Below, in pieces: positions 33,528 to 63,180 of a stretch of DNA of 64,000 nucleotides. Within the stretch, counting starts at the first letter, position 1. Each line of letters starts with the position of its first letter. The notes under the pieces are model-generated. The model had not been told where the DNA came from. It searched no databases and worked only from the letters and a program-made list of their open reading frames with translations. The DNA is from Naegleria gruberi (Eukaryota), in assembly GCA_000004985.1 (NCBI GenBank), contig GG738873.1; one strand, 5' to 3'. The translations under genes and the position numbers were made by a program.

Positions 33528-35429
33528 TTATTGGATTAAACATTTAGGTTTACCATTATTCGAAACTTGAGAATCCTGTAAAAGACAGCACTTTACAATC
33601 AATTCTTTCAATTCTTCAATTCCCACCATTTTCAATGAAGAAACTTCTGTAAATGATAAACATTTCAATTCTCTGGCTAGATTTTCTCCTTCCTCATACG
33701 AAACTATTCTTGGTTTTTCTTTCGAATAAAAATTTTCTCCTGGATTATAATTCCTCAAATCAGATTTTGTTCCCAACAGTAGAATTGGTGTTTTTGGTGA
33801 GTGAAGTCTTGTTTCCTCTACAAAAGTATCCTTAACTCGATGAAAGCTGTCTAAATTGTAGATACTGTACACTACAATGGTAAGATCTGGTGGAGGAGAG
33901 TAGGATAAATATCTAATTATTTCATAATCATATCCTCCAGCTGTATCTCTCATTTGGAGTGTGAATGTTTGATTTTTGAGAGTTACTGGAATTGGATGTT
34001 CACTTTCGAATACTGTTGGGATGTATTCTTGTGGAAATTCATTCATGGCTAGTACTATTTGCATTGAGGTTTTACCAACATTTGATGATCCAATTACGGT
34101 AATTCTAAATTCATGTAAATTATTTTCAGTTTCCTTGACAAGTTGTTGAATGTCTTGTTTTAAAATTTCCTGTTTTGGCTTGAATTGAAATTCAATGAGG
34201 GTTTTAATTCTTCCCAGTTCAATAATGTGATTTTTGGATTGTTGATAAAAAGTTCTTGAATGTAAAGCAAGATTGTAATAATTAACTCCACTACGTCGTG
34301 GGCTCACATTTTGTGATTTGCTTAACAAGAACTTCTTCCATAATTTGTCCTCAATGCTTAGTTGACTAAGTTGACAGTCTTTTCCAATCAATTGAACATT
34401 ATTGAGATCATGAACTGGTAAATATTCCAAAATCATTCTAAAAATGTCTTCGTTTAGCATTGATAACTTTCCATTATTTTCCTTTGCATTGATATTTGAG
34501 ATAGATTGTTGATATTTTCCTCCCCAGACAAAATAATAAACCACAAAGGTTAATTCGTGGGGTGTGTAAATGGTCAATGAATGGAAAACAGGTCCAAATT
34601 CAGAATTATTAAACACTCGAGAGAGAAAATGAAAGTTTTCTTCTCTCCACTCATTCTTCTCTGAGAGGTTTAAACTATGTAGAGTGGTAAAATCATGATT
34701 TGAATTACAACCACCAATCAAGAATAGCCTATCGTTTTCTATCCATGATTTGTGACCATATCTTGAAATATTTTGAGGAATTTTCTTGATTTTACAATTC
34801 AGATACTCAGATTCTGATAAATTTTCTAAATCAATTAGTAAAACGTCATTGATTGGAATATTTCCACTTTGTTTTCCACCTGAAATGATCAACAAATTAT
34901 TGTAAATCAGTGAGGAATGAAAGTATCTCCCCAAAATTTCATTATTTTTCCTATTTTTTAAAGACCGACATTTCCATTCGAAAGTTTTCAAATTTAATTC
35001 GAAAACTTGATTGGAAACAAATCCATCAGAATCATATCCACCAAATATAATCATGGAATCTTTGTAAATCTCAGCAGAATGTCCAAATCTGGGAGAAATA
35101 ACTTGATCATTCACAGTTGTTAGTTTCGTCCATTTTCCAACAGATTCCTTTGAATTAAATTCGAATTGCCAAACATCAGCTAGATATCCATTCGATTTAC
35201 CACCAAATAAAATCATTTTGTGATCATGGGAGATTGCAGAATGGAAATTTCTTGGAGATGGTTTTTCACCTTCCGATAAAATTATTGGAATGCAAGATTC
35301 TGATGAAATTTCATAAACTCTCAACTGATCAGAGTATTCGTTTTGATTGGCACTTTCGAGTAATCCACCAAAAATTAAAATATATTCATTGTTGATATTG
35401 ACGGATGTGTGACCGATGAGTTTTGACAT
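33528..35429 (-). CDS. Kelch-repeat + F-box-like + Rho-family small GTPase fusion protein with CAAX box
   Basis: N-terminal Kelch blades ('IFGGL','ILFGGKSNGYLADVWQF','IIFGGYDSDG','LIGGC'); 'LNEDIFRMILEYLPVHDLNNVQLIGKDCQ..LWKKF' F-box-like; C-terminal GTPase 'VIGSSNVGKTS','IPTVFE','DTAGGYDYEIIRYLSY','LLGTKSDLR', ends ..PKCLIQ (CaaX). Confidence 0.75.
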   Translation of the reverse strand: MSKLIGHTSVNINNEYILIFGGLLESANQNEYSDQLRVYEISSESCIPIILSEGEKPSPRNFHSAISHDHKMILFGGKSNGYLADVWQFEFNSKESVGKWTKLTTVNDQVISPRFGHSAEIYKDSMIIFGGYDSDGFVSNQVFELNLKTFEWKCRSLKNRKNNEILGRYFHSSLIYNNLLIISGGKQSGNIPINDVLLIDLENLSESEYLNCKIKKIPQNISRYGHKSWIENDRLFLIGGCNSNHDFTTLHSLNLSEKNEWREENFHFLSRVFNNSEFGPVFHSLTIYTPHELTFVVYYFVWGGKYQQSISNINAKENNGKLSMLNEDIFRMILEYLPVHDLNNVQLIGKDCQLSQLSIEDKLWKKFLLSKSQNVSPRRSGVNYYNLALHSRTFYQQSKNHIIELGRIKTLIEFQFKPKQEILKQDIQQLVKETENNLHEFRITVIGSSNVGKTSMQIVLAMNEFPQEYIPTVFESEHPIPVTLKNQTFTLQMRDTAGGYDYEIIRYLSYSPPPDLTIVVYSIYNLDSFHRVKDTFVEETRLHSPKTPILLLGTKSDLRNYNPGENFYSKEKPRIVSYEEGENLARELKCLSFTEVSSLKMVGIEELKELIVKCCLLQDSQVSNNGKPKCLIQ

Positions 35430-36412: not shown

Positions 36413-39400
36413 CTAGAAATTTTGAATGTCAGCACTTGTTGGTCTCATACTTGGTTCCTTTGAGACCATAGTCACAATAAAATTGCAAAGCTTCTCAGAG
36501 TAACCTCTTGATATCAAGTGTTCCATTGTTCTGTCCAACACCACTTCTTCCTTATCGTATAATAATTGAGCTGTAATGTTTAAATCTAAGGAATCATTTG
36601 CCATGGCCTGAATGAGTGAAACTCCAAGTGAAAATATATCAGCACTATAACTGTATTTTCTAGAAAAGACCTCAGGTGCCATATATTGCAATGTTCCTGC
36701 AACTGAATTTTGAGTTTCTCCAGTTTCCTTTGCCTCTCCATAATCACCAATAACCACTTGGATTTCATCCAATTCACGGTCCAATTTACTATAGAAAATA
36801 TTACGTGGTTTGATATCTCTGTGAACAATTAGTTTCTCTTGGTGAAGATAGTTCAAACCATCTCCAAGTTGTTTCATGATGGAGATGATCATCTTCTCAG
36901 AGACAATCTTTCCATCTTGTTTCAAATCTTTCAAGGCATGTTCCAAGTCGCCTTCATAAAATTTCATTACAATACAAATAGATTGAATAATCTGTGCTTC
37001 AAAGAATTCATAAACTTCAACCAGATTTGCATGTCTGTATGAAAGTGTTTTGGAACATTCATCAATAATTTTAGAATGTCTGCTTTGATCATAACTAATA
37101 GTCTTGATGGCAACTGGCATGTCATTCTTTTTAGAATCCAAACAGAGATAACATTTACCAAATGCACCCTGACCAATAACTTGTTGAATCTTGTATCTAT
37201 CTTTGAGCAAAGAATGATCTGTGTTTTGAGTAGAAGAAGTAGTAGTTGTGTTAGTATTGGAAGTATTGGAAGACAATTGGTACAAGGAATTGTTAAAGGT
37301 ATCGCTTGGGAAATCTGAAGTCACTGATGTACTATTATTGGCTGTTTGAGTGACATTTTCATCAATGGTTGTTATCATTTCAATTGGTTTTTCCTTAGTA
37401 ACCAGTGGTTTGCTTTTCTTCTTCTTTAATTTCACAATGAGACAGATGGTGACAATGATTGCAAGCAATATTAACAATACCAATAATGTTAAACCCACAA
37501 CCAATCCAACAATCAATCCAATGTTAGAATTAACTGGAGTAGTCACTTGTCCATTCTTGGATGCAAGTGGAGAGACATAGGTAGGAGGAACAATTCTATT
37601 CTCACAACTCAATCCACTATATCCTTCCAGACATGAACAACCATTACTTGATGTACATGTTCCATTTCCACTACAATTTTTCACGGCATCACAAGAGAAG
37701 AGGGAACAATCGAGACTTCCCTTCCATCCACTAGTGCATGAGCATGTATTATTACTCACACAGAAACCATGTCCTGAACAGGCATTCAATGTTTCACATG
37801 AGAAGAGAGAGCAATCAGAACTTCCTCTCCAGCCAGAATAACACGAACAATTGTTCATTACACAATCTCCATGTCCACTACATTGATTCTGTAGGTCACA
37901 ACCAAAAGAGATTGCTCTCACCTTTCCATTACTTGTGTCAGCAATGAAAATTTTAGATTCATCAGCAGAGAGAGCTACTCCCATTGGTCCATAAAATTGA
38001 GTTTCCAAAGGGTGCAAATTCTCTCCATTGTATCCATACAGTGGTGCAGTACCAGCAATGGTTATCAAAGTTCCATTCTTAAATAATTTCCTTATGGCAT
38101 GGTTTTGGGAATCAGAAATCAATAGTTCATCATTGGATAAAATGGCAAGACCAGCAGGATATCTCAACATTGAATTAACACCACTCAAATTCTCCCCACT
38201 ATATCCATCCACCCCAGTTCCTGCAATGGTAATGAGGGTTCCATCATTGAGAATTTTTCTCACTCGATGGCCTTCATACTCTGAAAAAATAACTTCATTA
38301 TTAGAGGTCAGTACAATTCCATATGGATTATTAATATTGGCACTAGTTGCTAATAGCCCATCTCCATTGTAGGTAGAAGTACCGGTACCAGCTACAGTAA
38401 TGATGGTCTGATTGAAAAACACTTTTCTAATTCGATGATTTCCAGAATCGGTAATGTACAAATCTCCATTTGTGGATCTGGCAATTCCTTTTGGTAAATT
38501 TAAATGAGCACTAGTAGCAGGAATGTTATCAGCATTGTATCCAGTAGTTCCAGATCCAGCTTTTGTTATTACAATTCCACTAGAAGATATGAGATATTTC
38601 ACAGTTGACGAATCAACAAAATAGTACTCCCCTACATTGGGCACGAGTGGAGATCTGGGTGAAATATAACTTGGAGTAATGGTTGTGATAATTCCACCGA
38701 GTGAAATCTTTCTCAATCTATAATTTCTTGTGTCGGCCACAATAACCTCATTATTTGGAGCGACAGCAACCGATTCTGGACCAAAGAGTTTTGCCTTCAC
38801 TGCCTCAATATTATCACCATTGTAGCCGAGATTGGAACCTGTTCCAGCAACAGTAGTGATGATATTGTTTGTGTTAATCTTTCTGACTCTGTAATTTCCA
38901 CCATCGGAAATGAAAATCTCCCCACTCGAGGATATAGCAATGCCTCTTGTGACTCTGAACATGGCATTGGATGCCAATTGATTGTCTCCAGCATAGCCAT
39001 ATGATGATCCAGCTATTAATGTTGCAACTCCATTCGTTTGAATCATGTACACTTTATCTGAAACAGTGACATAGAGAGCACCAGTGATTGGAGATATTGC
39101 CATTCCATTGACTGTATTAGTCTGGCCAGAGAGTTCAAAAGTAGTGAACATGACTACACTGGTGCCATTATTGAAAACCTTTCTAATCTTGTCATATTCT
39201 CCAATGTAAACTTCTCCACTATTAGAGATGGCAATGGAAGTGGGGAAGTTTAACTGTGCATTAGTTGCATCCTGTACCACAGTGGATGTATCTGTTCCAC
39301 CTCCAGCGAATGTTCTAATGATACCATCCGTATACGAAACTACACGAATTTTGTTATTTGAGGTTTCTGCAATATATAAATTATTATTCACAGGAGAGAT

Positions 39401-39961
39401 GACAATTCCACCTGGTGTATTCAATAGTGCATTGGTAGCGACTCCATCATCACCGATACTCCCTGGTACACCAACTTGACCAGCGTATGTGCTAATCAAA
39501 TTACTAGATAATATGACCTTTCGAATAACATGACTATTCGTATCAGACAAGTACATGACATCACTATTCTGAAAAGCAAGTGCACTAGGATAATTGAAAC
39601 GAGCCAAAGTTGCTATAGTTGTCGTGACAGAACCAGGAATACCCACACCAGCAATTGTTTTAATTTTACCACTACTTGCCACTACTTGTCTCACTCGACA
39701 ATTTATCTTGTCAACTATGAAAATGTCACCATTGTTACTTGGAGAGAGTGCAAGACCATCAGGTATGGCAATTTCTGCCTTGGTAGCATCAATGTTATCA
39801 CCATTGTAACCATTGGGATAACTACCTGCTATGGTTTTTACATGGTATAAAGATTGACCGTGGACAATTGGTTGGGCAGCAAGAAACACCAAGTGAAACA
39901 AAAACAACAATGGTAGCAAGAATGTTGAGCTATTAGTGTTGTTGAGTTTCAATTTGTCCAT
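36413..39961 (-). CDS. Receptor-like protein kinase: signal peptide, multiple NHL repeats, tenascin-type EGF repeats, single TM, cytoplasmic kinase domain
   Basis: NHL-like blades ending in ..RVRKI/..RIRKV/..RLRKI (x8 or more); 'CSGHGDCVMNNCSCYSGWRGSSDCS..CSGHGFC..CSGNGTC' EGF units; TM 'IGLIVGLVVGLTLLVLLILLAIIVTICLIV'; kinase motifs 'IGQGAFGKCY','VAIKTI','HRDIKPRNIF','GDYGEA','YMAPE','DIFSLG'. Confidence 0.85.
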   Translation of the reverse strand: MDKLKLNNTNSSTFLLPLLFLFHLVFLAAQPIVHGQSLYHVKTIAGSYPNGYNGDNIDATKAEIAIPDGLALSPSNNGDIFIVDKINCRVRQVVASSGKIKTIAGVGIPGSVTTTIATLARFNYPSALAFQNSDVMYLSDTNSHVIRKVILSSNLISTYAGQVGVPGSIGDDGVATNALLNTPGGIVISPVNNNLYIAETSNNKIRVVSYTDGIIRTFAGGGTDTSTVVQDATNAQLNFPTSIAISNSGEVYIGEYDKIRKVFNNGTSVVMFTTFELSGQTNTVNGMAISPITGALYVTVSDKVYMIQTNGVATLIAGSSYGYAGDNQLASNAMFRVTRGIAISSSGEIFISDGGNYRVRKINTNNIITTVAGTGSNLGYNGDNIEAVKAKLFGPESVAVAPNNEVIVADTRNYRLRKISLGGIITTITPSYISPRSPLVPNVGEYYFVDSSTVKYLISSSGIVITKAGSGTTGYNADNIPATSAHLNLPKGIARSTNGDLYITDSGNHRIRKVFFNQTIITVAGTGTSTYNGDGLLATSANINNPYGIVLTSNNEVIFSEYEGHRVRKILNDGTLITIAGTGVDGYSGENLSGVNSMLRYPAGLAILSNDELLISDSQNHAIRKLFKNGTLITIAGTAPLYGYNGENLHPLETQFYGPMGVALSADESKIFIADTSNGKVRAISFGCDLQNQCSGHGDCVMNNCSCYSGWRGSSDCSLFSCETLNACSGHGFCVSNNTCSCTSGWKGSLDCSLFSCDAVKNCSGNGTCTSSNGCSCLEGYSGLSCENRIVPPTYVSPLASKNGQVTTPVNSNIGLIVGLVVGLTLLVLLILLAIIVTICLIVKLKKKKSKPLVTKEKPIEMITTIDENVTQTANNSTSVTSDFPSDTFNNSLYQLSSNTSNTNTTTTSSTQNTDHSLLKDRYKIQQVIGQGAFGKCYLCLDSKKNDMPVAIKTISYDQSRHSKIIDECSKTLSYRHANLVEVYEFFEAQIIQSICIVMKFYEGDLEHALKDLKQDGKIVSEKMIISIMKQLGDGLNYLHQEKLIVHRDIKPRNIFYSKLDRELDEIQVVIGDYGEAKETGETQNSVAGTLQYMAPEVFSRKYSYSADIFSLGVSLIQAMANDSLDLNITAQLLYDKEEVVLDRTMEHLISRGYSEKLCNFIVTMVSKEPSMRPTSADIQNF

Positions 39962-40503
39962 TTTTTTGAAAGTTATTGGTCTTTGTTAACACAGTATCTT
40001 GGTCTCTCCACAAGGAAAGGTCGCGGTACTCATCCAAGATACTACTCTCCATGGAGTTCAGTTGCCAATATAAAGATCGGACTTGCAATCTCATTCACGC
40101 ATTCATGTGTACCTGTTCAAGTTTAAAAAAGTGTTGTTTTTGAACATGAATGAGCAATGCATAGAAGGCACAATATTTAAAATGTTTGCGAATGATTCGT
40201 TTCAAAAAGTGATCATGTTCATTAAAGTTTCATTGTCACATTGAACAATGATAGTATCTGCAGAACCAACGAATGGTCTGTTTCAAATATTTGTTGCACC
40301 AAATCAGAATGGTAACATTTTCAAATGCAAGTCTCTTACTGTCAACATCGTCCATCTCTCAGTGGACCTTAAGAGAGTATCAATTCGTGCCTTGGAAGCT
40401 TTTTTGTTTGGATGGAGGTCTTGGTTTAAGTGTGGGAGATTGTGGTGGAGTAATTGAGGAAGAATCATTTGATACTATTGACCTATATTTTCTTTATAAA
40501 AAA

Positions 40504-41618
40504 ATGGCAAAACACAATCTTGCATCTCTTCCACAAGAAATTCTTCGGATCATATTATCGTATCATGTAATAGGCACATGTGGAGAATCAGCTGATTCTT
40601 CTCGGAAGGAAAAAACAACAATTTCCATCAATCAAGAAATTAAATTTATGACCAATTTTCAATCGATCAGTTCAATAATTAATAGCAAATTAAAGGAATA
40701 TTTTGATGATTTTTGGAGTGGAATTTTTGAACAATATTGTGTTGATGAAGAGGAGAAACAGGATCCTAAATTTCGAATAATGAAAGAGAAATTGGTAGAA
40801 ATGGACGAATTAAAGAGAAAGATTCTTTTAATTCGTTATATTGCTCCGATTATGATAAAACACGAAAAGATAAGAAAGACATTTAGAGATTATTTGAGAA
40901 TTGTAGTATTTGGTGATGAAGCAGTGGGTTAGTTTATTTGAAATTAATTGTTTCTAATATTGAAAAGGAAAGTCCAGTATAATTCTACGTTTCATAGAAG
41001 GTGAATTTAAAGAATGGGATCCAACTGTTGAGGATTTTCATTTGAAATCTGTAAAATTTGGAAATTCAACAACTAATCTCGATATTCTTGGTGTGGGTAC
41101 GTGAATTGAAATATTTCTTTTTAACAATTCTCGAAACTCCATATACGGATAGCTGGCCAAATGGAACACAACTCACACAGCATTAGAAATGGATATCTGA
41201 GTCAATGTGATTGTTATCTGGGTGTCTGCTCAGCAACCATCAAAAATTCAATGAATTATATAGAAGAAAACATTCAAGATTTAAATAATTCTAAGGATGG
41301 GCCCTACACACCAATCATTGTTGTGTTAAATAAGATGGATCTTATTGAGAATGATATCAATGACAGTTCAGATCGGAAATGAACAGAATTATTAAGAAAA
41401 ATAATCTTGAAAATGTTTTCACTGTTGAATGCAGTGCCAAGACAGGCGAAAATATTTCACTAATATTTGATGCATGTATTCAAATGTATATTTATGAATA
41501 TTTGAGAAGAAAGTGGTGGAATCTTTTGGAAAATGTCGCCAAGTTTGACTCTAAATATATTGAGCTGTGTACTGCTGATCCTTCCAAGTCAAAGAAAAAA
41601 ACTTGCCTCCTGAACTAG
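40504..41618 (+). CDS. F-box-like + Ras-family small GTPase fusion with CAAX box; 3 exons (40504..40927, 40967..41096, 41153..41618) and an apparent +1 frameshift near 41364-41382
   Basis: N-terminal 'LASLPQEILRIILSYHV' F-box-like; 39-nt intron 40928..40966 restores P-loop/switch I 'VVFGDEAVGGKSSIILRFIEGEFKEWDPTVEDF'; 'LDILGV|AGQME' split by intron 41097..41152; 'IIVVLNKMDL' (NKxD); after frame change 'ECSAKTGENI' (SAK) and C-terminal CLLN. Confidence 0.65.
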
Positions 41619-41659
41619 TAATTTTAATGGTTTGTAAACTTGGAGATTGAACTGACAGT

Positions 41660-44600
41660 TTGTTAAAAAAAATGATAATTGACCAACACCAAACTGCACC
41701 TCGTTGGATTTGCAACAAGTGCCAAGGATTCATCGATAGGGGAACAATCCGATACGTCAATACTGATGAAAAGGACTTTGACTTGTGTGAAAATTGTTAT
41801 CACTGGTGTTGGGAACAGTATCAGAAGAGAAAGCAACATAATACAAATTCACAATTTAATTCTCTTGATGATGATGGTGATGATGATGTTGGGAATAACA
41901 CGGAAAATAACAAAATATTGGACATGTTCTGTAGGGATTTGGAATTTATTGTACCAACCAAGTATCACTATTCTGAAATGAAAGGACGAATTAAAAGTTC
42001 CGATCGGTTTAATAGTTCTCTGTTTAGATCATTTGTTGAATATTCACTCAATCCTTGCTTTGGATTGTTGAAACAAGATGATGGTCCCTATCATTTTCAA
42101 ACCTATGAACAGGTATTTCATTTGATTTGTTGCATCAGTATTGGATTAGATCAGATTTTGAAACCATTAATACGAGTGGGAAAGAGACAATTTGTATCAA
42201 TATGTGGAAAGAATAATTTGTATTGGTATTTGAGTGATTATGCTTGTTTCTTTAGGGGGTTTGTGATTGCCCCCATTCATTTTGCTCAATCATTTGAGGA
42301 GACGAAATATTGCATTGAACTGACAGAGAGTCAAGTTGCTATTTGTACTGAAGAAATGTTAGATTTATTCATTAGAATTACCAAAGAGTTGGATATTGTG
42401 AAATATATTATTGTAATGGATGATACAGAATCAAAATCAAGAGGAAAATTTACCAATCAAAGAGGAACACAAGAAATTGAAATTATTCCAATGAATGACA
42501 TTATTGACGCTGGAAAATCAATATTGTGTGAATATTTGAATGAAAAGAACAAACCAAGAACGAATCCATATCCAGAACATTATGAAAATCACGAGACAAT
42601 CCTTGTGACTCCACCTCAGGACAAGTACGATCCTAGAAAGATGTGGATTGGAGTGGAACATGAAGAATTTATTCTAAATAGGTTGGATAATGAGGAGGAT
42701 CTAGTGACTCTTGTTTTCACAAGTGGATCCACTGGTATTCCAAAAGGAATCATGATGAGTGATAGAGCTTTGAGAAAGGAAGTACTCAGTTTAAGGATAA
42801 AAGATCCTAAAGTTCGTTTCTCTTTTTGTCCACTCGCTCACATGAGTGATAGAAAATACACCCTATTGGCCATGTGTAATGGAGCCAGAGTTGGAATATT
42901 TACTAGAGAATTTGTTCACATCTTTGAGGATATTCAAAACTGCAAACCAGTTGTAATTGCATCCACTCCAAGATTATTCAATGTGCTGTACGATGAGTTT
43001 AAGAAAGTAGTCGAATTGGAAAGAATTCGTTGGCTTTCTTCCACTGAAACTGGGAAACCAAAAACTGAGAAGGAACTTGAGGAAAGAACCATGCTTGACT
43101 TTCAATACATGCTTGGTGGGCGTGTTCAATCAATTATTCTTGGAGGGGCTTCTTCTAGCCCACAATTAAGAGAATTTTTGGCAAAATGTTTCCAGTGTAA
43201 AGTAACAGATGGTTTTGGAATGTCTGAAGCTGGAGGAATTATGAATAACAATCGACTCAACACTAATGTCGAATACAAGTTGATTGATGTTCCTGAATTG
43301 AGCTATTTCACAACAGACAAACCTTATCCGAGAGGAGAACTTTGTGTCAAGACAAATTACATGTTTATTGGATATTATAAGAATGAAGAGCTCACTAATA
43401 ATGCACTGGATGAAAATGGATGGTTACACACCAACGATATTGTTGAAGAATTAGGACCAAATCAAATCAGAATTATTGACAGACTGAAGAATATTTTCAA
43501 ATTGAGTCAGGGTGAATTCATAGCACCTGCCAAGATTGAAGATGCTCTCACTACCTCTAAATTTATTTTCCAAGCTTTTATTTATGGCAATGTGACAAAG
43601 AGCTACTTGGTTGGTGTCATTGTTCCCAACAAAACAGTTTTAAAACAGTTTGCAATTAAGGAAGGAATTATCAAACCATCAGCCGATCACCATCTCCTAA
43701 ATGAAGAAGAGAAAGAAGTATTGGCAAATAATGAGCTGATCAAGAAAGCTCTATGTGAAGAGATTGAGAAAGTTGCTGTAAATTGTTCACTTTTGTCTTA
43801 CGAAGTTCCAAAAGATTTTATCATTGAATTTGAACCTTTTAGTGAGAAAAATGATTTACTAACCTCCTCTATGAAGGTTAAGAGATTTGGATGTGAAATG
43901 AAATATAAGGAACAATTGGAGACACTCTATGAGCATGTAGATAGAAATTACAAGAGAAAGTTGGACGAAGATTTGATTCGTGAATTGTTAGTGAACTCCT
44001 CATCAGGCTCAGAGGAATCTGCAGATGGAAATATGAAAATTATTGACAGTCTTCATGCAGTTAAATTTTCTGGAATTATGAAACAAAAATTCAACATTGA
44101 CATTCCACTTTCATTGATATTTTCTCAAACGGATAGGAATGTGGAAAGTGTAGTGAGTAGAGTTTCAAACTTTGTCACAAAAGGCCAAACTAATCAGCAA
44201 TCGTATGACTGGAAAAAGGATATTCTCTTACCACAAGAACTTCTCGATGAAATTACTGACATTACTTCAAAAGGAAAGCAGAAATTCAATAAGATATCAA
44301 ACCTAAAGAAGGGTATTCTTCTGACTGGCTCAACTGGATTTTTAGGTGCCTTCCTATTGAGAGATTTATTGGAGAATTTACAAACAGCTCAGGAGCATGT
44401 GAAAATCTATTGTTTGATAAGAGAAAAGAATCAGCAACACAGTTTATTCACTAGATTGAAGAAACATCTTGTAAAATTCAATATCTGGAAAGATACTTAT
44501 GAAAGGAGAATATCTGTCATTAGGGGAAATTTACAGGATGAGAATTTAGGTCTCTCTCATGAGGAATTCAACAAATTGGCTGGAGATGTTGACATTATTT

Positions 44601-45604
44601 ACCACAATGGAGCATATGTCAACTCAGTCATGTCGTACTCTCAATTATTCTCTTCCAATGCTGGATCTACGTACTATTTATTGAAACTTGCTTGCCTGTC
44701 ATCAAAATTGAATATCCAAAATGATGGAGATTCCTTAACACCAATTATTCTCGTTTCAACTGTTGGTGTTGTACAATCTGCGTTGTCAGAATTTGATCTA
44801 CCAACCAGAAAATCTCAAGTTAATGATAACCCTCAGGAAACTAAAGAAATGATTAGCAATCATGTCGATCAAGTCATTGGTCAACTGAAACCAATTATTG
44901 AAAAAGCAGCTGGGTATAACAGCACCAAATTTATTGCAGAACAATACATTCAACAAGCAAGGTTATTGGGATATCCCGGTGCCATCTTTAGACCAGGAAT
45001 GATTGGAAGTGATACTGAGAATGGAGTTTCGAATTTAGAGGACTGGGTCAATAGGTTGATTCTGGGATGTTTCGAATTGGGTTGCTTCCCACAAACCAAA
45101 AAATCTCTCAATGTCATTCCTGTGGATATTATTTCAAGAGTGATTGTGGAATTGACACAGAATGAGAATGTATTCATTGGTACTTTACAATCCAATCCAA
45201 ACTATTTGATTTATGAGGTGGCTAATCTTTCTCAATATGAAATTCAAATTGATAATTTACTTGGCATCGCTGCCACAACTCTAGCGAAATTGCTAAACAA
45301 GAAACCAATGGAAATGGTTAGCTACACTAAGTGGAAACAAATACTGAATGAGAGAACATCAACCGAAGAAAACGAAATGTTATTGATTTTGAAAACTCTC
45401 TTCAAATCAGATACGGAATTTCTAAAAAGCATAAACAAACTCCAAGACAACCACATTCAGAAAATCATTGAAGTTCTTTCTAGATCAGAAAGCATACAGT
45501 GCAGAGAATTAGTTCCTAACAAAAATCTAAACCAAAACTATCTTGAAAAACAAGCTCTATACCTAGTCCAGAGTCTCAAGAAGAAATTGGGCGAAAATTT
45601 ATAA
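41660..45604 (+). CDS. ZZ-type zinc finger + long-chain acyl-CoA-synthetase-type adenylation domain + phosphopantetheine carrier + NAD(P)-dependent thioester reductase (carboxylic-acid-reductase-like A-T-R enzyme)
   Basis: 'WICNKCQGFIDRGTIRYVNTDEKDFDLCENCYHWCWEQY' ZZ finger; AMP-binding core 'TSGSTGIPKG', 'GWLHTNDIVEE', 'IIDRLKNIFKLSQGEFIAPAKIE' (ACSL-like); PCP-like 'IDSLHAVKFSGIMKQ'; R domain 'LLTGSTGFLGAFLL', 'YHNGAYVN', 'GYNSTKFIAE' (YxxxK); single 1314-aa exon. Confidence 0.8.
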   Translation: MLKKMIIDQHQTAPRWICNKCQGFIDRGTIRYVNTDEKDFDLCENCYHWCWEQYQKRKQHNTNSQFNSLDDDGDDDVGNNTENNKILDMFCRDLEFIVPTKYHYSEMKGRIKSSDRFNSSLFRSFVEYSLNPCFGLLKQDDGPYHFQTYEQVFHLICCISIGLDQILKPLIRVGKRQFVSICGKNNLYWYLSDYACFFRGFVIAPIHFAQSFEETKYCIELTESQVAICTEEMLDLFIRITKELDIVKYIIVMDDTESKSRGKFTNQRGTQEIEIIPMNDIIDAGKSILCEYLNEKNKPRTNPYPEHYENHETILVTPPQDKYDPRKMWIGVEHEEFILNRLDNEEDLVTLVFTSGSTGIPKGIMMSDRALRKEVLSLRIKDPKVRFSFCPLAHMSDRKYTLLAMCNGARVGIFTREFVHIFEDIQNCKPVVIASTPRLFNVLYDEFKKVVELERIRWLSSTETGKPKTEKELEERTMLDFQYMLGGRVQSIILGGASSSPQLREFLAKCFQCKVTDGFGMSEAGGIMNNNRLNTNVEYKLIDVPELSYFTTDKPYPRGELCVKTNYMFIGYYKNEELTNNALDENGWLHTNDIVEELGPNQIRIIDRLKNIFKLSQGEFIAPAKIEDALTTSKFIFQAFIYGNVTKSYLVGVIVPNKTVLKQFAIKEGIIKPSADHHLLNEEEKEVLANNELIKKALCEEIEKVAVNCSLLSYEVPKDFIIEFEPFSEKNDLLTSSMKVKRFGCEMKYKEQLETLYEHVDRNYKRKLDEDLIRELLVNSSSGSEESADGNMKIIDSLHAVKFSGIMKQKFNIDIPLSLIFSQTDRNVESVVSRVSNFVTKGQTNQQSYDWKKDILLPQELLDEITDITSKGKQKFNKISNLKKGILLTGSTGFLGAFLLRDLLENLQTAQEHVKIYCLIREKNQQHSLFTRLKKHLVKFNIWKDTYERRISVIRGNLQDENLGLSHEEFNKLAGDVDIIYHNGAYVNSVMSYSQLFSSNAGSTYYLLKLACLSSKLNIQNDGDSLTPIILVSTVGVVQSALSEFDLPTRKSQVNDNPQETKEMISNHVDQVIGQLKPIIEKAAGYNSTKFIAEQYIQQARLLGYPGAIFRPGMIGSDTENGVSNLEDWVNRLILGCFELGCFPQTKKSLNVIPVDIISRVIVELTQNENVFIGTLQSNPNYLIYEVANLSQYEIQIDNLLGIAATTLAKLLNKKPMEMVSYTKWKQILNERTSTEENEMLLILKTLFKSDTEFLKSINKLQDNHIQKIIEVLSRSESIQCRELVPNKNLNQNYLEKQALYLVQSLKKKLGENL

Positions 45605-59315: not shown

Positions 59316-60005
59316 TTATTCAGATTTACATTGATCAATTGGTGGACAAATATCTGGTACCTTAAACACATTTGGATCAACACTCTCAACCATATTATAA
59401 TTATTTTCCAAGCTACTTCCAAATGAATCTTGTGAGTAGGTATTTAAAATCCAACAATTCTCGCTCTGAGATGGATTATCATTGAAAATGAAAGTCTCCA
59501 TGAATTGCTGTTGCGATTTGGAGACAATTCTCTTTGCATCTAAATGACCAATTCTGACCTTGCTGATATTTCCTTGATTTGGAAGACAGAACCAATCGAA
59601 ATCATATTGATATTTGACACATCCACATTGATTATTCATGATTTCAAAGTTGACATATTGGGAGCCAGCAATTCTGAATGTGTAGAGGATGTGAGGAGTT
59701 GGTTGACCAGTAGGTGATTTGGAGACTTCTTGTCTAATCTTTCCTAATTTATAATCTGCATAGAATGAGGAAGTGCCATTAAAAGAATTAATCATGGAAT
59801 TTGGGGTGAAAAAAATGTAATCACCAAGCATGGAGACAGTTCTTGGTAAACAACATAAATTACCTGCTGATCCTCTCTTTTTAGACAAACTTTTGGAAGT
59901 TTCGAATAGTTTACTGAGAGGAGTCAAAGAGAAATTGGTGCCACAGGTCACAGAAGAAATTGTAAGGATGGTTAAAAACAATGCATAGAGAAGTGATTTG
60001 TTCAT
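59316..60005 (-). CDS. Secreted Cys-containing hypothetical protein
   Basis: Signal peptide MNKSLLYALFLTILTISSVTCG; 229 aa, 10 Cys. Confidence 0.5.
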   Translation of the reverse strand: MNKSLLYALFLTILTISSVTCGTNFSLTPLSKLFETSKSLSKKRGSAGNLCCLPRTVSMLGDYIFFTPNSMINSFNGTSSFYADYKLGKIRQEVSKSPTGQPTPHILYTFRIAGSQYVNFEIMNNQCGCVKYQYDFDWFCLPNQGNISKVRIGHLDAKRIVSKSQQQFMETFIFNDNPSQSENCWILNTYSQDSFGSSLENNYNMVESVDPNVFKVPDICPPIDQCKSE

Positions 60006-60619: not shown

Positions 60620-61447
60620 CTATTCCTTCTTTGACTTCTTACTAGACAATGCCTTGATAATACCCTTAGTGAGTTTAGTGAACCACATGATATTCAAAAA
60701 GGCCAAATTCAAACATTGGAGAAGCCAAAAACCGAGAGCAATCCAACCATTAACACCCTTTTCACCAACATAATTCATCCAAGCTCCCCAAGTATGAACA
60801 AAGAAGAGAATATTAAAGACAACATATCCAAGTCTAAAGATTGCCCATGAAAGCCACATCATTAATCCGTTCAAGACATAGATCATTGCTTCCTTGAAGC
60901 CTCCCTTCTCCAAGAACCATCTACCATTAATAAAAACAGTAGTATGTTCAGTCAATGTGACCCAGACACCCAAAATTTGAGCAACCTTCAATTGAACAAG
61001 TGCAATTTGAGCACCAGCAATACAAACATGGTGAATAATCATTTCAATTCCTCCAATTTGTGGATAATAATAAAAGACAAACAATAAATCAATAATCATA
61101 TAACCAGTTGAATAGTAAAAGATACATTCAGCATATAAAGAAGTGTGAAGGAAATCCCATTCAGACAAAAACTTGATATCATTCAATAAAATCCATCCTC
61201 CGACAAATCCCATCACAAATGAGTGAATTGAAGAAATGATACGTGATTCGTATTCATTTCGATCTTTGAGTTGAAGAGAATTGTAAAACTTTGGAAGGAG
61301 AATTGTTTTACAAAGAATTTTCATAACAAATAAATAGAGCAAGAGATTTCCGACCAAACTTGCCAACAATACTTGATGAGGAGTTGAAATTCCATAAGAA
61401 GACAAACTTTGATGCACGTCTTGAACAATTTGAATCACTCCACTCAT
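60620..61447 (-). CDS. TLC (TRAM/LAG1/CLN8)-domain multi-pass membrane protein
   Basis: Six hydrophobic helices; conserved TLC 'EMIIHHV' His-His motif and 'W..L..F' helices. Confidence 0.65.
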   Translation of the reverse strand: MSGVIQIVQDVHQSLSSYGISTPHQVLLASLVGNLLLYLFVMKILCKTILLPKFYNSLQLKDRNEYESRIISSIHSFVMGFVGGWILLNDIKFLSEWDFLHTSLYAECIFYYSTGYMIIDLLFVFYYYPQIGGIEMIIHHVCIAGAQIALVQLKVAQILGVWVTLTEHTTVFINGRWFLEKGGFKEAMIYVLNGLMMWLSWAIFRLGYVVFNILFFVHTWGAWMNYVGEKGVNGWIALGFWLLQCLNLAFLNIMWFTKLTKGIIKALSSKKSKKE

Positions 61448-61892: not shown

Positions 61893-62852
61893 TTAAGGAA
61901 GTGGTCTTGCGTGTGCTTTAATTTCTTCAACTTTTTCCTTAATCCAGGATTTGAGTGAGTGATCTTCTGGTTTTGCTTCTTCTTTGAGAGTTTCGTGCAT
62001 GATTGGTACTTCACCTTCCTTGAATTGAACTGTTTCAGGATTGGCATTTGGAACGTATTGAGGCATGGTGGTACGAAGATGTTCTTCTTGGAGAGGATTG
62101 TTAGTCAATCTCACTTGTTCTTCTGGAGTGAGAGTTTCTTTGAAGGTATCTTTGAGATGTTGGTTGGTGGCTTTGGCCTTATCGAGAAGTTCGTCTCTGG
62201 TTTCGTATCCAGTTTCTTTAAGGTCTTGGACAGTTTCTTTGAGAGTGTCTTTCCATTCAGAACCTGTTTCCTTGATGTTATCCTTCATGTCATAGGCCTT
62301 ATTGACTACATTTTCCTTGACATCAGCTGCCTTGTCCATCACTTTCTCTTTCACGTCACTTGCCTTGTCCATCACTGTATCCTTGACATCGGCTGCTTTA
62401 TCCATCACTGTATCTTTCGCATCAGCAGCTTTATCTTTCATTTCATAAGCTTTATCCATAACTGTCTCCTTCACATCAGCAGCCTTATCTTCCCACTCAC
62501 CAATCTTGGTTTTAATTCCTTCCTTCAAGTCGTGTGCCTTCTTCTTGATCGTATCCTTCCAATCTGAAGCAGTTTCCTTGATCGTATCCTTCTTGTCTCT
62601 CAAATAATCTTTGGTTTCATCGTAGGATTCTTTGATGTTGTCCTTAATCGAATCCTTGACATTCTCAACTCTTTCTTTCAAATTGTCCTTGAGCATTTCC
62701 TTCTTTTGAATATCGACTGGAACAATCTTTTCATTGGCTGGTGTCTTGGCTGGATTGCTGGAGGCACTGTACAGTGCTAATTGAATGACGAAACCTATTA
62801 GAATTGCAAATACGAAACCTGTTAAAAGTCTCTTATCAATTTGAAAATCCAT
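61893..62852 (-). CDS. Membrane-anchored LEA-like (group-3 type) protein with tandem 11-residue 'MDKAADVKDTV' repeats
   Basis: N-terminal TM 'LLTGFVFAILIGFVIQLALY'; charged K/D/E-rich 11-mers (KDTIKETASDW, KAADVKETVMD, KAADAKDTVMD, KAADVKDTVMD, KASDVKEKVMD, KAADVKENVVN); start taken at MDFQIDK Met. Confidence 0.6.
   Translation of the reverse strand: MDFQIDKRLLTGFVFAILIGFVIQLALYSASSNPAKTPANEKIVPVDIQKKEMLKDNLKERVENVKDSIKDNIKESYDETKDYLRDKKDTIKETASDWKDTIKKKAHDLKEGIKTKIGEWEDKAADVKETVMDKAYEMKDKAADAKDTVMDKAADVKDTVMDKASDVKEKVMDKAADVKENVVNKAYDMKDNIKETGSEWKDTLKETVQDLKETGYETRDELLDKAKATNQHLKDTFKETLTPEEQVRLTNNPLQEEHLRTTMPQYVPNANPETVQFKEGEVPIMHETLKEEAKPEDHSLKSWIKEKVEEIKAHARPLP
62296..62490. repeat. 33-bp tandem repeat (about x5) encoding the LEA-like 11-mers
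   Basis: ccttgtccatcactgtatccttgacatcggctg-type units repeated head-to-tail. Confidence 0.7.
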
Positions 62853-63180
62853 TCTTGTTGTTTTTTTGCTAATTTTCTTCCAATGGATTGTAAAGCAGGT
62901 AGTTTTCAATAAAACGGTTATTCTGTTTGGGAAGTTTTCATTATAGAAACTTGCTCTAATAGAATTTATTCACATGGATGTTATACATTTCCATTTATGA
63001 GCATTTTTATATATGGAAATTCACAATTTTCAGAATTATTGGACTCAATTATTTGAGACCTGATGAGCAACTGCATGTTTCAACTATTAGAATTTCATCA
63101 CACAAGGAAAATGTCCAAGTTTGCAAATATAAATTGAATAATTCCATAATAAATATTGAACTGTTGCTGTTTTATAAATC

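Follow-up and report, generated by a model that had tools for sequence, protein, structure and literature searches.

Here we describe a gene in a 64,000-nucleotide stretch of the Naegleria gruberi genome (contig GG738873.1, assembly GCA_000004985.1; hereafter the window). We believe that its product is a self-contained, CoA-independent carboxylate reductase in which adenylation (A), carrier (T) and reductase (R) domains follow one another in a single chain, and that it belongs to an uncharacterised eukaryotic family with an N-terminal zinc module derived from the ZZ finger; we place the probability of this reading at roughly 0.65. The sequence suggests that the enzyme most likely converts fatty acids to fatty aldehydes or alcohols. 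The catalytic design itself is familiar; the novelty lies in a combination found across eukaryotes that joins a ZZ module to an A domain of the long-chain acyl-CoA synthetase (ACSL) type, a carrier, and an R domain of the nonribosomal peptide synthetase (NRPS) type without the Asp of bacterial carboxylic acid reductases (CARs). To our knowledge, the CARs that have been characterised biochemically all come from bacteria or fungi; the gene would represent a third, eukaryotic lineage of the CAR design, with a zinc module of its own and an R domain lacking the Asp thought to stop the reaction at the aldehyde.

The gene and its catalytic domains

The complete coding sequence is a single exon at 41672..45604 on the plus strand, encoding 1310 amino acids followed by a stop codon at 45602-45604. 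It lies in a single open reading frame (ORF) of 1314 codons at 41660..45604 (+; ORF listing, translation table 11), exactly as a preliminary description of this DNA had stated; the frame opens at a TTG at 41660, and the count falls to 1310 residues when made from the first ATG, at 41672, which gives a protein starting MIIDQHQ. Residues are numbered here on the 1310-residue protein, and Pfam positions on the 1314-residue frame. At the GC content of the window (34.5%) we calculate about 0.072 stop codons per random codon, and 1314 stop-free codons would arise with a chance of about e^-98; this is therefore not a chance ORF. The full-length Naegleria homologs P0001, P0002 and P0003 cover 98-99% of the query, which fits a single exon, and we conclude that the gene at this position is real and intact. 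Every motif quoted in the preliminary description is present (TSGSTGIPKG, IIDRLKNIFKLSQGEFIAPAKIE, IIDSLHAV, GSTGFLG and GYNSTKF). The corresponding public protein model (EFC43457.1/XP_002676201.1; P0089) is named 'predicted protein, partial [Naegleria gruberi]' and covers 42698..43948 (+); its 417 residues are an exact substring of the 1310-residue protein, 100% identical to residues 343-759, and it omits the ZZ module, the N-terminal portion of the A domain, the carrier and the reductase. The truncated model is thus corrected here from 417 to 1310 residues. This identity, together with the heterolobosean origin of all four best homologs, also overturns the earlier guess that the host was a dictyostelid.

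The A domain (residues ~95-760; 41954..43951, +) is placed in the ACSL/FadD9/CAR class by PF00501, CAR structures, blastp and a structural model. Pfam AMP-binding (PF00501) matches at 144-573 (3.6e-44; 151.6 bits against a cut-off of 29.9 bits), and AMP-binding_C_3 gives a weak match at 613-759. The A3 motif TSGSTGIPKG occupies residues 350-359, the A5 motif reads GFGMSEAG and includes Glu519, and both His390 of the A domain and the A10 Lys735 are in place. The A8 motif, which carries the fatty acyl-CoA synthetase (FACS) signature, reads IIDRLKNIFKLSQGEFIAPAKIE at residues 601-623 and includes Glu615; we take this region to be a strong, near-perfect match to the FACS motif of Black et al. The A7 motif reads HTNDIV (43427-43444), with Asn in place of Gly, while its Asp589 is kept and is invariant among the homologs. 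HTNDIV is shared by the two N. gruberi paralogs and Willaertia; the form kept in N. fowleri and N. lovaniensis is HTGDIV. In blastp comparisons the A domain (96-760) scores 259 bits against a dictyostelid ACSL, 231-260 bits against bacterial CAR A domains and just 38-39 bits against NRPS A domains. These scores agree with its earlier description as ACSL-type, and by sequence eukaryotic ACSLs and bacterial CAR A domains are equally close to it. The AlphaFold2 model of residues 1-760 has a predicted local distance difference test score (pLDDT) of 90.0, and its best fold matches are the CAR A domains 6oz1, 5mst and 5msd (1e-49 to 1e-45); luciferases and acyl-CoA ligases rank next, at ~1e-30.

The carrier domain (peptidyl carrier protein, PCP; residues ~766-838; 43967..44185, +) is recognised from its alignment with CARs, an invariant Ser and the structural model. 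The predicted phosphopantetheine site is Ser793 (nucleotides 44048-44050), in the context KIIDSLHAV, with IIDSLHAV at residues 790-797; a phmmer search of the PDB places the Ser of IIDSL opposite the one that is pantetheinylated in the CAR motif GGDSLSAL. Asp792 and Ser793 are invariant in an alignment of 37 sequences drawn from the ZZ-bearing family and the bacterial CARs, and Ser793 is kept in 47 proteins of the ZZ family. The Gly of the GxDS motif is retained in P0005, P0006, Balamuthia, Physarum and Amphimedon. An AlphaFold2 model of residues 740-1310 (pLDDT 85.2; predicted template-modelling score 0.84) shows four helices in the carrier, at residues 27-36, 54-68, 74-77 and 85-98 of the fragment, with Ser54 of the fragment, equivalent to Ser793, opening helix II; the predicted arrangement of helices around this residue is the canonical carrier geometry. 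Foldseek aligns the PCP-R didomains of CARs (5msr, 5msp and 5msv) across ~590 columns.

The terminal NAD(P)H-dependent thioester reductase (residues ~880-1310; 44309..45601, +) is identified by PF07993, TIGR01746 and its fold. NAD_binding_4 (PF07993) matches at 888-1162 (2.3e-54; 184.7 bits against a cut-off of 20.1 bits). The Rossmann motif GSTGFLG lies at residues 886-892 (44327-44347), a Ser/Thr is found in VSTVGV (1028-1033), and GYNSTKF at residues 1081-1087 (44912-44932) holds Tyr1082 and Lys1086. Gly886, Gly889, Gly892, Tyr1082 and Lys1086 are all invariant in the 37-sequence alignment. The preliminary description had named two losses that would undermine it, that of the catalytic Tyr/Lys pair of the R domain and that of a modifiable Ser in the carrier; as Ser793, Tyr1082 and Lys1086 are conserved, neither has occurred, and the one blemish is the missing Gly of GxDS, beside a DSL Ser that is invariant in the 37 and 47 aligned homologs.

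Published work on the Neurospora CAR lists five residues whose replacement by Ala abolishes activity, His237, Glu433, Ser595, Tyr844 and Lys848 (PMC5826065). Their counterparts in the N. gruberi protein are His390, Glu615, Ser793, Tyr1082 and Lys1086, each of them invariant or conserved to 90% or more; Glu433 is mapped tentatively to Glu615 by its spacing from the Dx14R motif.

The R domain appears, from its sequence, to resemble generic NRPS R domains and not those of the bacterial CAR type. Its best fold matches are MxaA and a polyketide synthase (PKS) thioreductase (4w4t and 4u7w at 1e-23; 8v1x), and the MxaA, PKS and CAR reductase domains span 1e-23 to 1e-16 overall. In blastp it scores 132-149 bits against NRPS terminal R domains, 132 bits against the R domain of the Lys2-like P0068, and at most 114 bits (mostly 70-100) against the R domains of bacterial CARs. 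The linker loop reads FRPGMIG (residues 1106-1112; 44987-45007), with Gly1109 where the bacterial CARs have Asp. Among ZZ-bearing homologs in which this motif could be located, the residue is Gly in 24, Ala in six and Asp in none, whereas 26 CARs without a ZZ module have the Asp. In bacterial CARs this Asp (FRCDMIL or FRSDMIL) has been proposed to render the nicotinamide disordered after aldehyde formation and so to enforce two-electron reduction, while NRPS R domains have Gly at the same position whether they release an aldehyde or an alcohol (PMC8024701). The choice between aldehyde and alcohol can therefore not be read from the sequence.

A Neighbor-Joining tree of R domains recovers those of the bacterial CARs as a clade with 100% bootstrap support and all the ZZ-family R domains outside it; the ZZ-family and NRPS R domains are intermixed in groupings that have no support. 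As the tree does not separate these two, an independent fusion is offered here as a conjecture. On the A domain the ZZ family has a bootstrap of just 13% as a clade, since P0044, which is short at its N-terminus, groups among its members. Of the proposed A-T-R logic of the CAR/FadD9 type, the order of the three domains and their residues stand, and the R domain departs from the bacterial CAR type in having Gly for Asp and in blastp scores to NRPS R domains that equal or surpass those to CAR R domains.

The ZZ-derived zinc module and the family that carries it

The N-terminal zinc finger (residues ~10-60; 41699..41851, +) is recognised as ZZ-derived by alignment, a family profile and the structural model. 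One zinc site is complete, C14-x2-C17 and C39-x2-C42 (41711-41722 and 41786-41797), and its four Cys residues are invariant in 14 aligned family N-termini and in 47 family sequences. The query has lost the second zinc site of ZZ domains (C3, C4, His, His) and reads RYVNTDEKDFDL there. Naegleria generally, Willaertia, Balamuthia and some further members are likewise without this site, which Physarum, Amphimedon and a number of metagenomic members possess. A profile built from the 14 family N-termini matches solved ZZ domains at 1e-13 to 1e-7, including those of Nbr1 (1e-13), RSC8 (4e-11), p300/CBP (6e-11) and p62 (7e-9), and all but one of the 14 segments match PF00569, with a best E-value of 4e-9. 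The isolated query segment scores 17.9 bits against PF00569 (E=0.0027), under the cut-off of 21.4 bits, and the sole ZZ match in a Pfam scan of the whole protein, ZZ_ADA2 at 18-61, is not significant (E=0.83). In the AlphaFold2 model, residues 11-60 form short hairpins followed by a helix, with pLDDT values of 93-96, and the one-zinc relic is accordingly predicted to fold as a module on the N-terminal side of the A domain. These alignments indicate a ZZ derivative with a single zinc site, so that the ZZ finger of the preliminary description holds for one complete, invariant site and not for the second. The module would probably serve in protein contact or structural support rather than in catalysis.

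Two further features of this region vary among the homologs. In Naegleria an extra conserved Cys stands three residues past the second CxxC (41798-41836), reading CENCYHWCW in the window copy, with His residues nearby, and CETCFNKCY in the N. fowleri cluster representative; the extra Cys and neighbouring His could conceivably form a replacement second metal site. A motif of the form K..SLFSG, SIFSG or NLFG is found in homologs P0001-P0006, about 25-45 residues ahead of the ZZ Cys pair. The window copy has no SLFSG-type motif (41619-41700), and its start lies just 13 residues ahead of the first Cys.

The closest relatives of the protein are full-length and of similar size: the N. gruberi paralog P0001 (71% identity; 1324 residues), the N. 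fowleri cluster representative P0002 (52%; 1376 residues, with named N. fowleri members of 1343-1380 residues), and homologs from N. lovaniensis (50%; 1374 residues) and Willaertia magna (44%; 1305 residues). N. gruberi has two paralogs; the search gave a single homolog for N. fowleri and a single one for N. lovaniensis (50-52%). A ZZ-like motif upstream of A3 occurs in the query and in 14 other proteins among the first 88 matches, and in none of the bacterial CARs. An exhaustive search of representative sequences returned 2373 proteins at E<1e-30; the motif is present in 37 of the 145 new top-ranked representatives, as a full ZZ in 22, with six Cys in eight and as a half site in seven. Members with a named host come from N. 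gruberi, N. fowleri, N. lovaniensis, Willaertia magna, Physarum polycephalum, Balamuthia mandrillaris and the sponge Amphimedon queenslandica; searching with a profile of 47 family members brought no further named taxon to this list. The fusion had been thought unusual; found in the query and 14 proteins and then in at least 37 more representatives, it is family-wide, and on sequence evidence the ZZ fusion is the hallmark of a eukaryotic family with dozens of members.

Two metagenomic members, P0014 and P0035, have an extra N-terminal berberine-bridge/FAD-oxidase region (PF08031, PF01565), and this architecture suggests oxidase-reductase fusions within the ZZ-A-T-R family; the ZZ-bearing relative P0155 is similarly long, at 1910 residues. 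Existing database names for family members are automatic only ('carboxylic acid reductase-like', 'FadD9', 'Carrier domain-containing protein', 'predicted protein, partial'). Our literature search found no paper that links CARs with Naegleria, amoebae, sponges or ZZ domains, or that mentions the accession numbers, and a search for contigs encoding P0001 or the window protein, made for synteny, found none.

Proposed activity and alternative explanations

Taken together, the domain structure suggests a model for the activity of the enzyme. The ACSL-like A domain would use ATP to convert its substrate, most likely a medium- or long-chain fatty acid, to the acyl-adenylate. The acyl group would then pass to the thiol of a phosphopantetheine on Ser793. 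As pantetheinylation needs a phosphopantetheinyl transferase (PPTase) and none is found among the 30 window ORFs that were scanned, we assume that this is put on by a PPTase encoded elsewhere in the genome. The carrier would swing the thioester into the C-terminal reductase, which is of the short-chain dehydrogenase/reductase type, and a hydride presumably supplied by NAD(P)H, with Tyr1082 and Lys1086 assisting, would free the fatty aldehyde. A second reduction to the fatty alcohol would be possible, because Gly1109, as in NRPS R domains, stands in place of the Asp that has been proposed to restrict bacterial CARs to two-electron reduction.

A number of observations weigh against this reading. 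In the R domain, the TIGR01746 thioester-reductase score of 199.1 bits falls narrowly under the cut-off of 213.35; in the A domain, the TGD of the A7 motif is altered to TND; and for the protein as a whole, the top-ranked NCBIfam model, 'carboxylic acid reductase' (NF041592 'carboxyl_red', EC 1.2.1.30), scores 443.6 bits against an equivalog cut-off of 1300. The carrier gives a PP-binding match (PF00550) at 795-831 with E=0.08 and 13.7 bits, under the cut-off of 20.8 bits, and the Gly of its GxDS motif is lost in Naegleria and Willaertia (IIDSL here, AIDSL or VIDSL elsewhere). A Pfam scan of 30 window ORFs found no PPTase/ACPS domain. The public gene model is a 417-residue partial protein, against the 1310 residues predicted for the full-length ORF. 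The literature yielded no biochemical data for any member of the ZZ-A-T-R family, and the chain length of the substrate is suggested solely by the class of the A domain. The Pfam scan called for in the preliminary description gave a divided picture, with clear matches to AMP-binding (3.6e-44) and NAD_binding_4 (2.3e-54), and with PP-binding (E=0.08) and ZZ (E=0.83) insignificant alone. The last two, insignificant on the query alone, are rescued by the evidence from the family.

The A-T-R architecture would also suit an enzyme with a non-fatty substrate, an aromatic, dicarboxylic or amino acid, of an NRPS-like or Lys2-like kind with a place in amino-acid or secondary metabolism. Bacterial and fungal CARs are known to accept aromatic acids promiscuously (PMC5826065), and the R domain is like those of the NRPS/Lys2 type, with 132 bits to P0068 and ~199 bits to TIGR03443 over the R region. 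We nevertheless think such a substrate unlikely, as the A domain hardly resembles those of the NRPS type (38-39 bits), the TIGR03443 score stands at 199 of the 1030 bits required and covers the T-R part only, the A8 region is a near-perfect FACS signature, and there is no biosynthetic cluster around the gene.

A different division of labour is conceivable if the carrier is vestigial: the protein would then be an ordinary ACSL whose C-terminal domain acts on free acyl-CoA in the manner of a fatty acyl-CoA reductase (FAR, or 'male sterility' protein), in effect a fused ACSL-FAR. The equal similarity of the A domain to eukaryotic ACSLs and CAR A domains would allow this, as would the insignificant PP-binding match (E=0.08) and the missing Gly of GxDS; the best Pfam name of the R domain is the FAR-type NAD_binding_4, and a rice FAR (DPW, 7eoz) is among the fold matches, at 5e-13. 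Terminal R domains, however, match the fold at 1e-23, and there is no match to the FAR 'Sterile' C-terminal domain. Across 47 family members the DSL Ser never varies while its surroundings diverge, this Ser opens helix II of the predicted four-helix carrier, and the CAR PCP-R didomains align over both domains, which together make a fused ACSL-FAR quite improbable.

That the locus is decaying or misassembled, with only its GenBank-annotated centre real and the long ORF not expressed as one protein, is highly improbable: the public model is indeed a 417-residue 'partial' protein, the stop codon of the upstream gene (41616-41618) lies just 53 bp before the ATG, and the conserved N-terminal 'xxSLFSG' motif is absent, but the frame stays open through 1314 codons in a genome of 34.5% GC, the window contains zero Ns, every catalytic residue is intact, and the ORF is collinear with full-length homologs of three Naegleria species and Willaertia.

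For a self-contained A-T-R carboxylate reductase, a role in ether-lipid or wax synthesis, which the preliminary description had raised, is plausible, if speculative. Naegleria has a PEDS1 orthologue (PMC11225845), and therefore probably a plasmalogen pathway that consumes fatty alcohols. A paper on amoeba peroxisomes mentions no ether-lipid enzymes in Naegleria, and the link to signalling polyketides that had also been suggested found no support. We would go further only as a speculation, and a rather doubtful one: the ZZ-(ACSL-type A)-PCP-R enzymes may represent an ancient pathway, spread through the eukaryotes and independent of CoA, that leads from free fatty acids to aldehydes or alcohols. 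It would be present in Heterolobosea, Amoebozoa, sponges and many unsampled protists, and its enzymes would have arisen by the joining of an ACSL-like A domain to an NRPS-like R domain, independently of the bacterial CARs. In phagotrophic amoebae this route might feed ether-lipid and plasmalogen synthesis with fatty alcohol, and the ZZ module might couple its activity to a partner or a localisation signal.

If the enzyme is active on fatty acids, it would provide an unrecognised amoebal route by which scavenged fatty acids are converted directly to aldehydes or alcohols, with a bearing on the supply of ether lipids and plasmalogens; the brain pathogen N. fowleri has an orthologue. The family would also be a new source of CAR biocatalysts, and the protein a possible target, where the lack of a human counterpart is presumed, no human sequence having been searched.

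Genomic surroundings and comparison with known systems

The gene stands among ordinary eukaryotic genes. A Pfam scan of 30 window ORFs identifies among its neighbours a Kelch-Ras fusion, an NHL-EGF kinase, leucine-rich repeat, F-box and thioredoxin-domain proteins, 14-3-3, RPL32, PIG-C and a TLC-domain protein; it finds no further A, T or R gene. The check for an adjacent PPTase thus came back empty for these ORFs, and a regular-expression search for the PPTase motif (F/W)(S/T)xKE(S/A)xxK over the six frames of the window gave nothing credible. Immediately upstream, at 40273-41618 (+), lies an apparent intron-containing gene for an F-box-like and small-GTPase protein with a polybasic CAAX box (KSKKKTCLLN*) at its C-terminus; a gap of 53 bp separates the stop codon of this gene (41616-41618) from the reductase ATG. 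Further away on the minus strand are two unusual signalling genes with several domains each, one for a fusion of a Kelch propeller with a Ras-family GTPase (33528-35429) and one for a receptor-like protein with NHL repeats, teneurin-like EGF and a protein kinase domain (36413-39961). A TLC-domain protein (TRAM/LAG1/CLN8; 60620-61447, -; PF03798, 1.4e-18) is encoded ~15 kb downstream and may be a lipid-metabolism gene; a functional link to the reductase is without evidence. Of the ORFs at 59316-60005 (-) and 61893-62909 (-), one matches 'Ependymin domain, amoebozoa' (PF25544, 2.7e-7), and the other has weak apolipoprotein and YtxH-like helical-repeat matches under the Pfam thresholds.

Two familiar enzymes were considered as identities for the protein and rejected. 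Lys2, the alpha-aminoadipate reductase (TIGR03443), matches over residues 801-1269 only, with 198.8 bits against a cut-off of 1030, and NRPS A domains score 38-39 bits. A FAR identity fails to account for the A and T domains that are present, and the protein has no match to the PF03015 'Sterile' domain at E<=1.

The closest overall resemblance is to the bacterial type I CARs, such as Nocardia iowensis Car, Mycobacterium marinum CAR, Segniliparus rugosus CAR and M. tuberculosis FadD9, which have the same A-PCP-R order and a similar size. In a phmmer search of the PDB, M. marinum CAR (5mso) ranks at the top (2e-88), followed by the S. rugosus and N. iowensis CARs, and its alignment is contiguous over query residues 341-1141. 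These CARs are the best PDB match to the A-domain fold, and they share with the N. gruberi protein the PCP-R didomain fold and the His, Glu, Ser, Tyr and Lys residues; identity is just 25-29%, however, and the query adds the ZZ module, has Gly for the linker-loop Asp, and comes from a eukaryotic host. M. marinum CAR reduces fatty acids of C6-C18.

The A domain taken by itself is close to the eukaryotic ACSL/FAA proteins, being 29% identical to the dictyostelid FcsA-like P0048 (259 bits over ~650 residues) and having in common with them the FACS signature and the A3, A5, A8 and A10 motifs. ACSLs stop after the A domain and hand the acyl group to free CoA, whereas the query adds a covalent carrier and a reductase. 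Solved fatty acyl-CoA synthetases (Drosophila CG6178, 7kyd; Thermus, 1ult) match the model at ~1e-27, compared with 1e-49 to 1e-45 for the CAR A folds.

The R domain, for its part, is closest to the terminal R domains of NRPS and PKS enzymes (MxaA, M. tuberculosis Nrp, AusA) and of Lys2, with which it shares an RPGxIxG loop with Gly; NRPS/PKS R domains score as high as or above CAR R domains in blastp and are the best fold matches. Their partners are amino-acid-type A domains or ketosynthase/acyltransferase modules, whereas the partner here is an ACSL-type A domain, and no condensation domain is found in the query protein. The fungal CARs (types II-IV, e.g. Neurospora crassa NcCAR) and NRPS-like A-T-R proteins follow the same logic and share the five essential residues (PMC5826065), and the R domain of NcCAR (8aep) is a fold match at 1e-15; they are much more distant in sequence (E=1e-12 to 1e-5), their A domains are NRPS-like, and they are without a ZZ module.

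The zinc module finds its counterparts in the ZZ fingers of p62/SQSTM1, p300/CBP, Nbr1 and HERC2, whose cross-brace Cys pairs C1/C2 and C5/C6 are likewise invariant in the family described here. The one-zinc ZZ variant of RSC8/SWI3 also lacks the C3/C4 Cys residues in the printed alignment ('RYHNLRARDTNLC'). We know of no described function for a ZZ domain joined to a lipid-type adenylating enzyme. Known ZZ domains occur in chromatin, autophagy and ubiquitin-ligase proteins, where they read N-terminal peptides, whereas in this family the ZZ derivative is fused to an adenylating enzyme of the lipid type.

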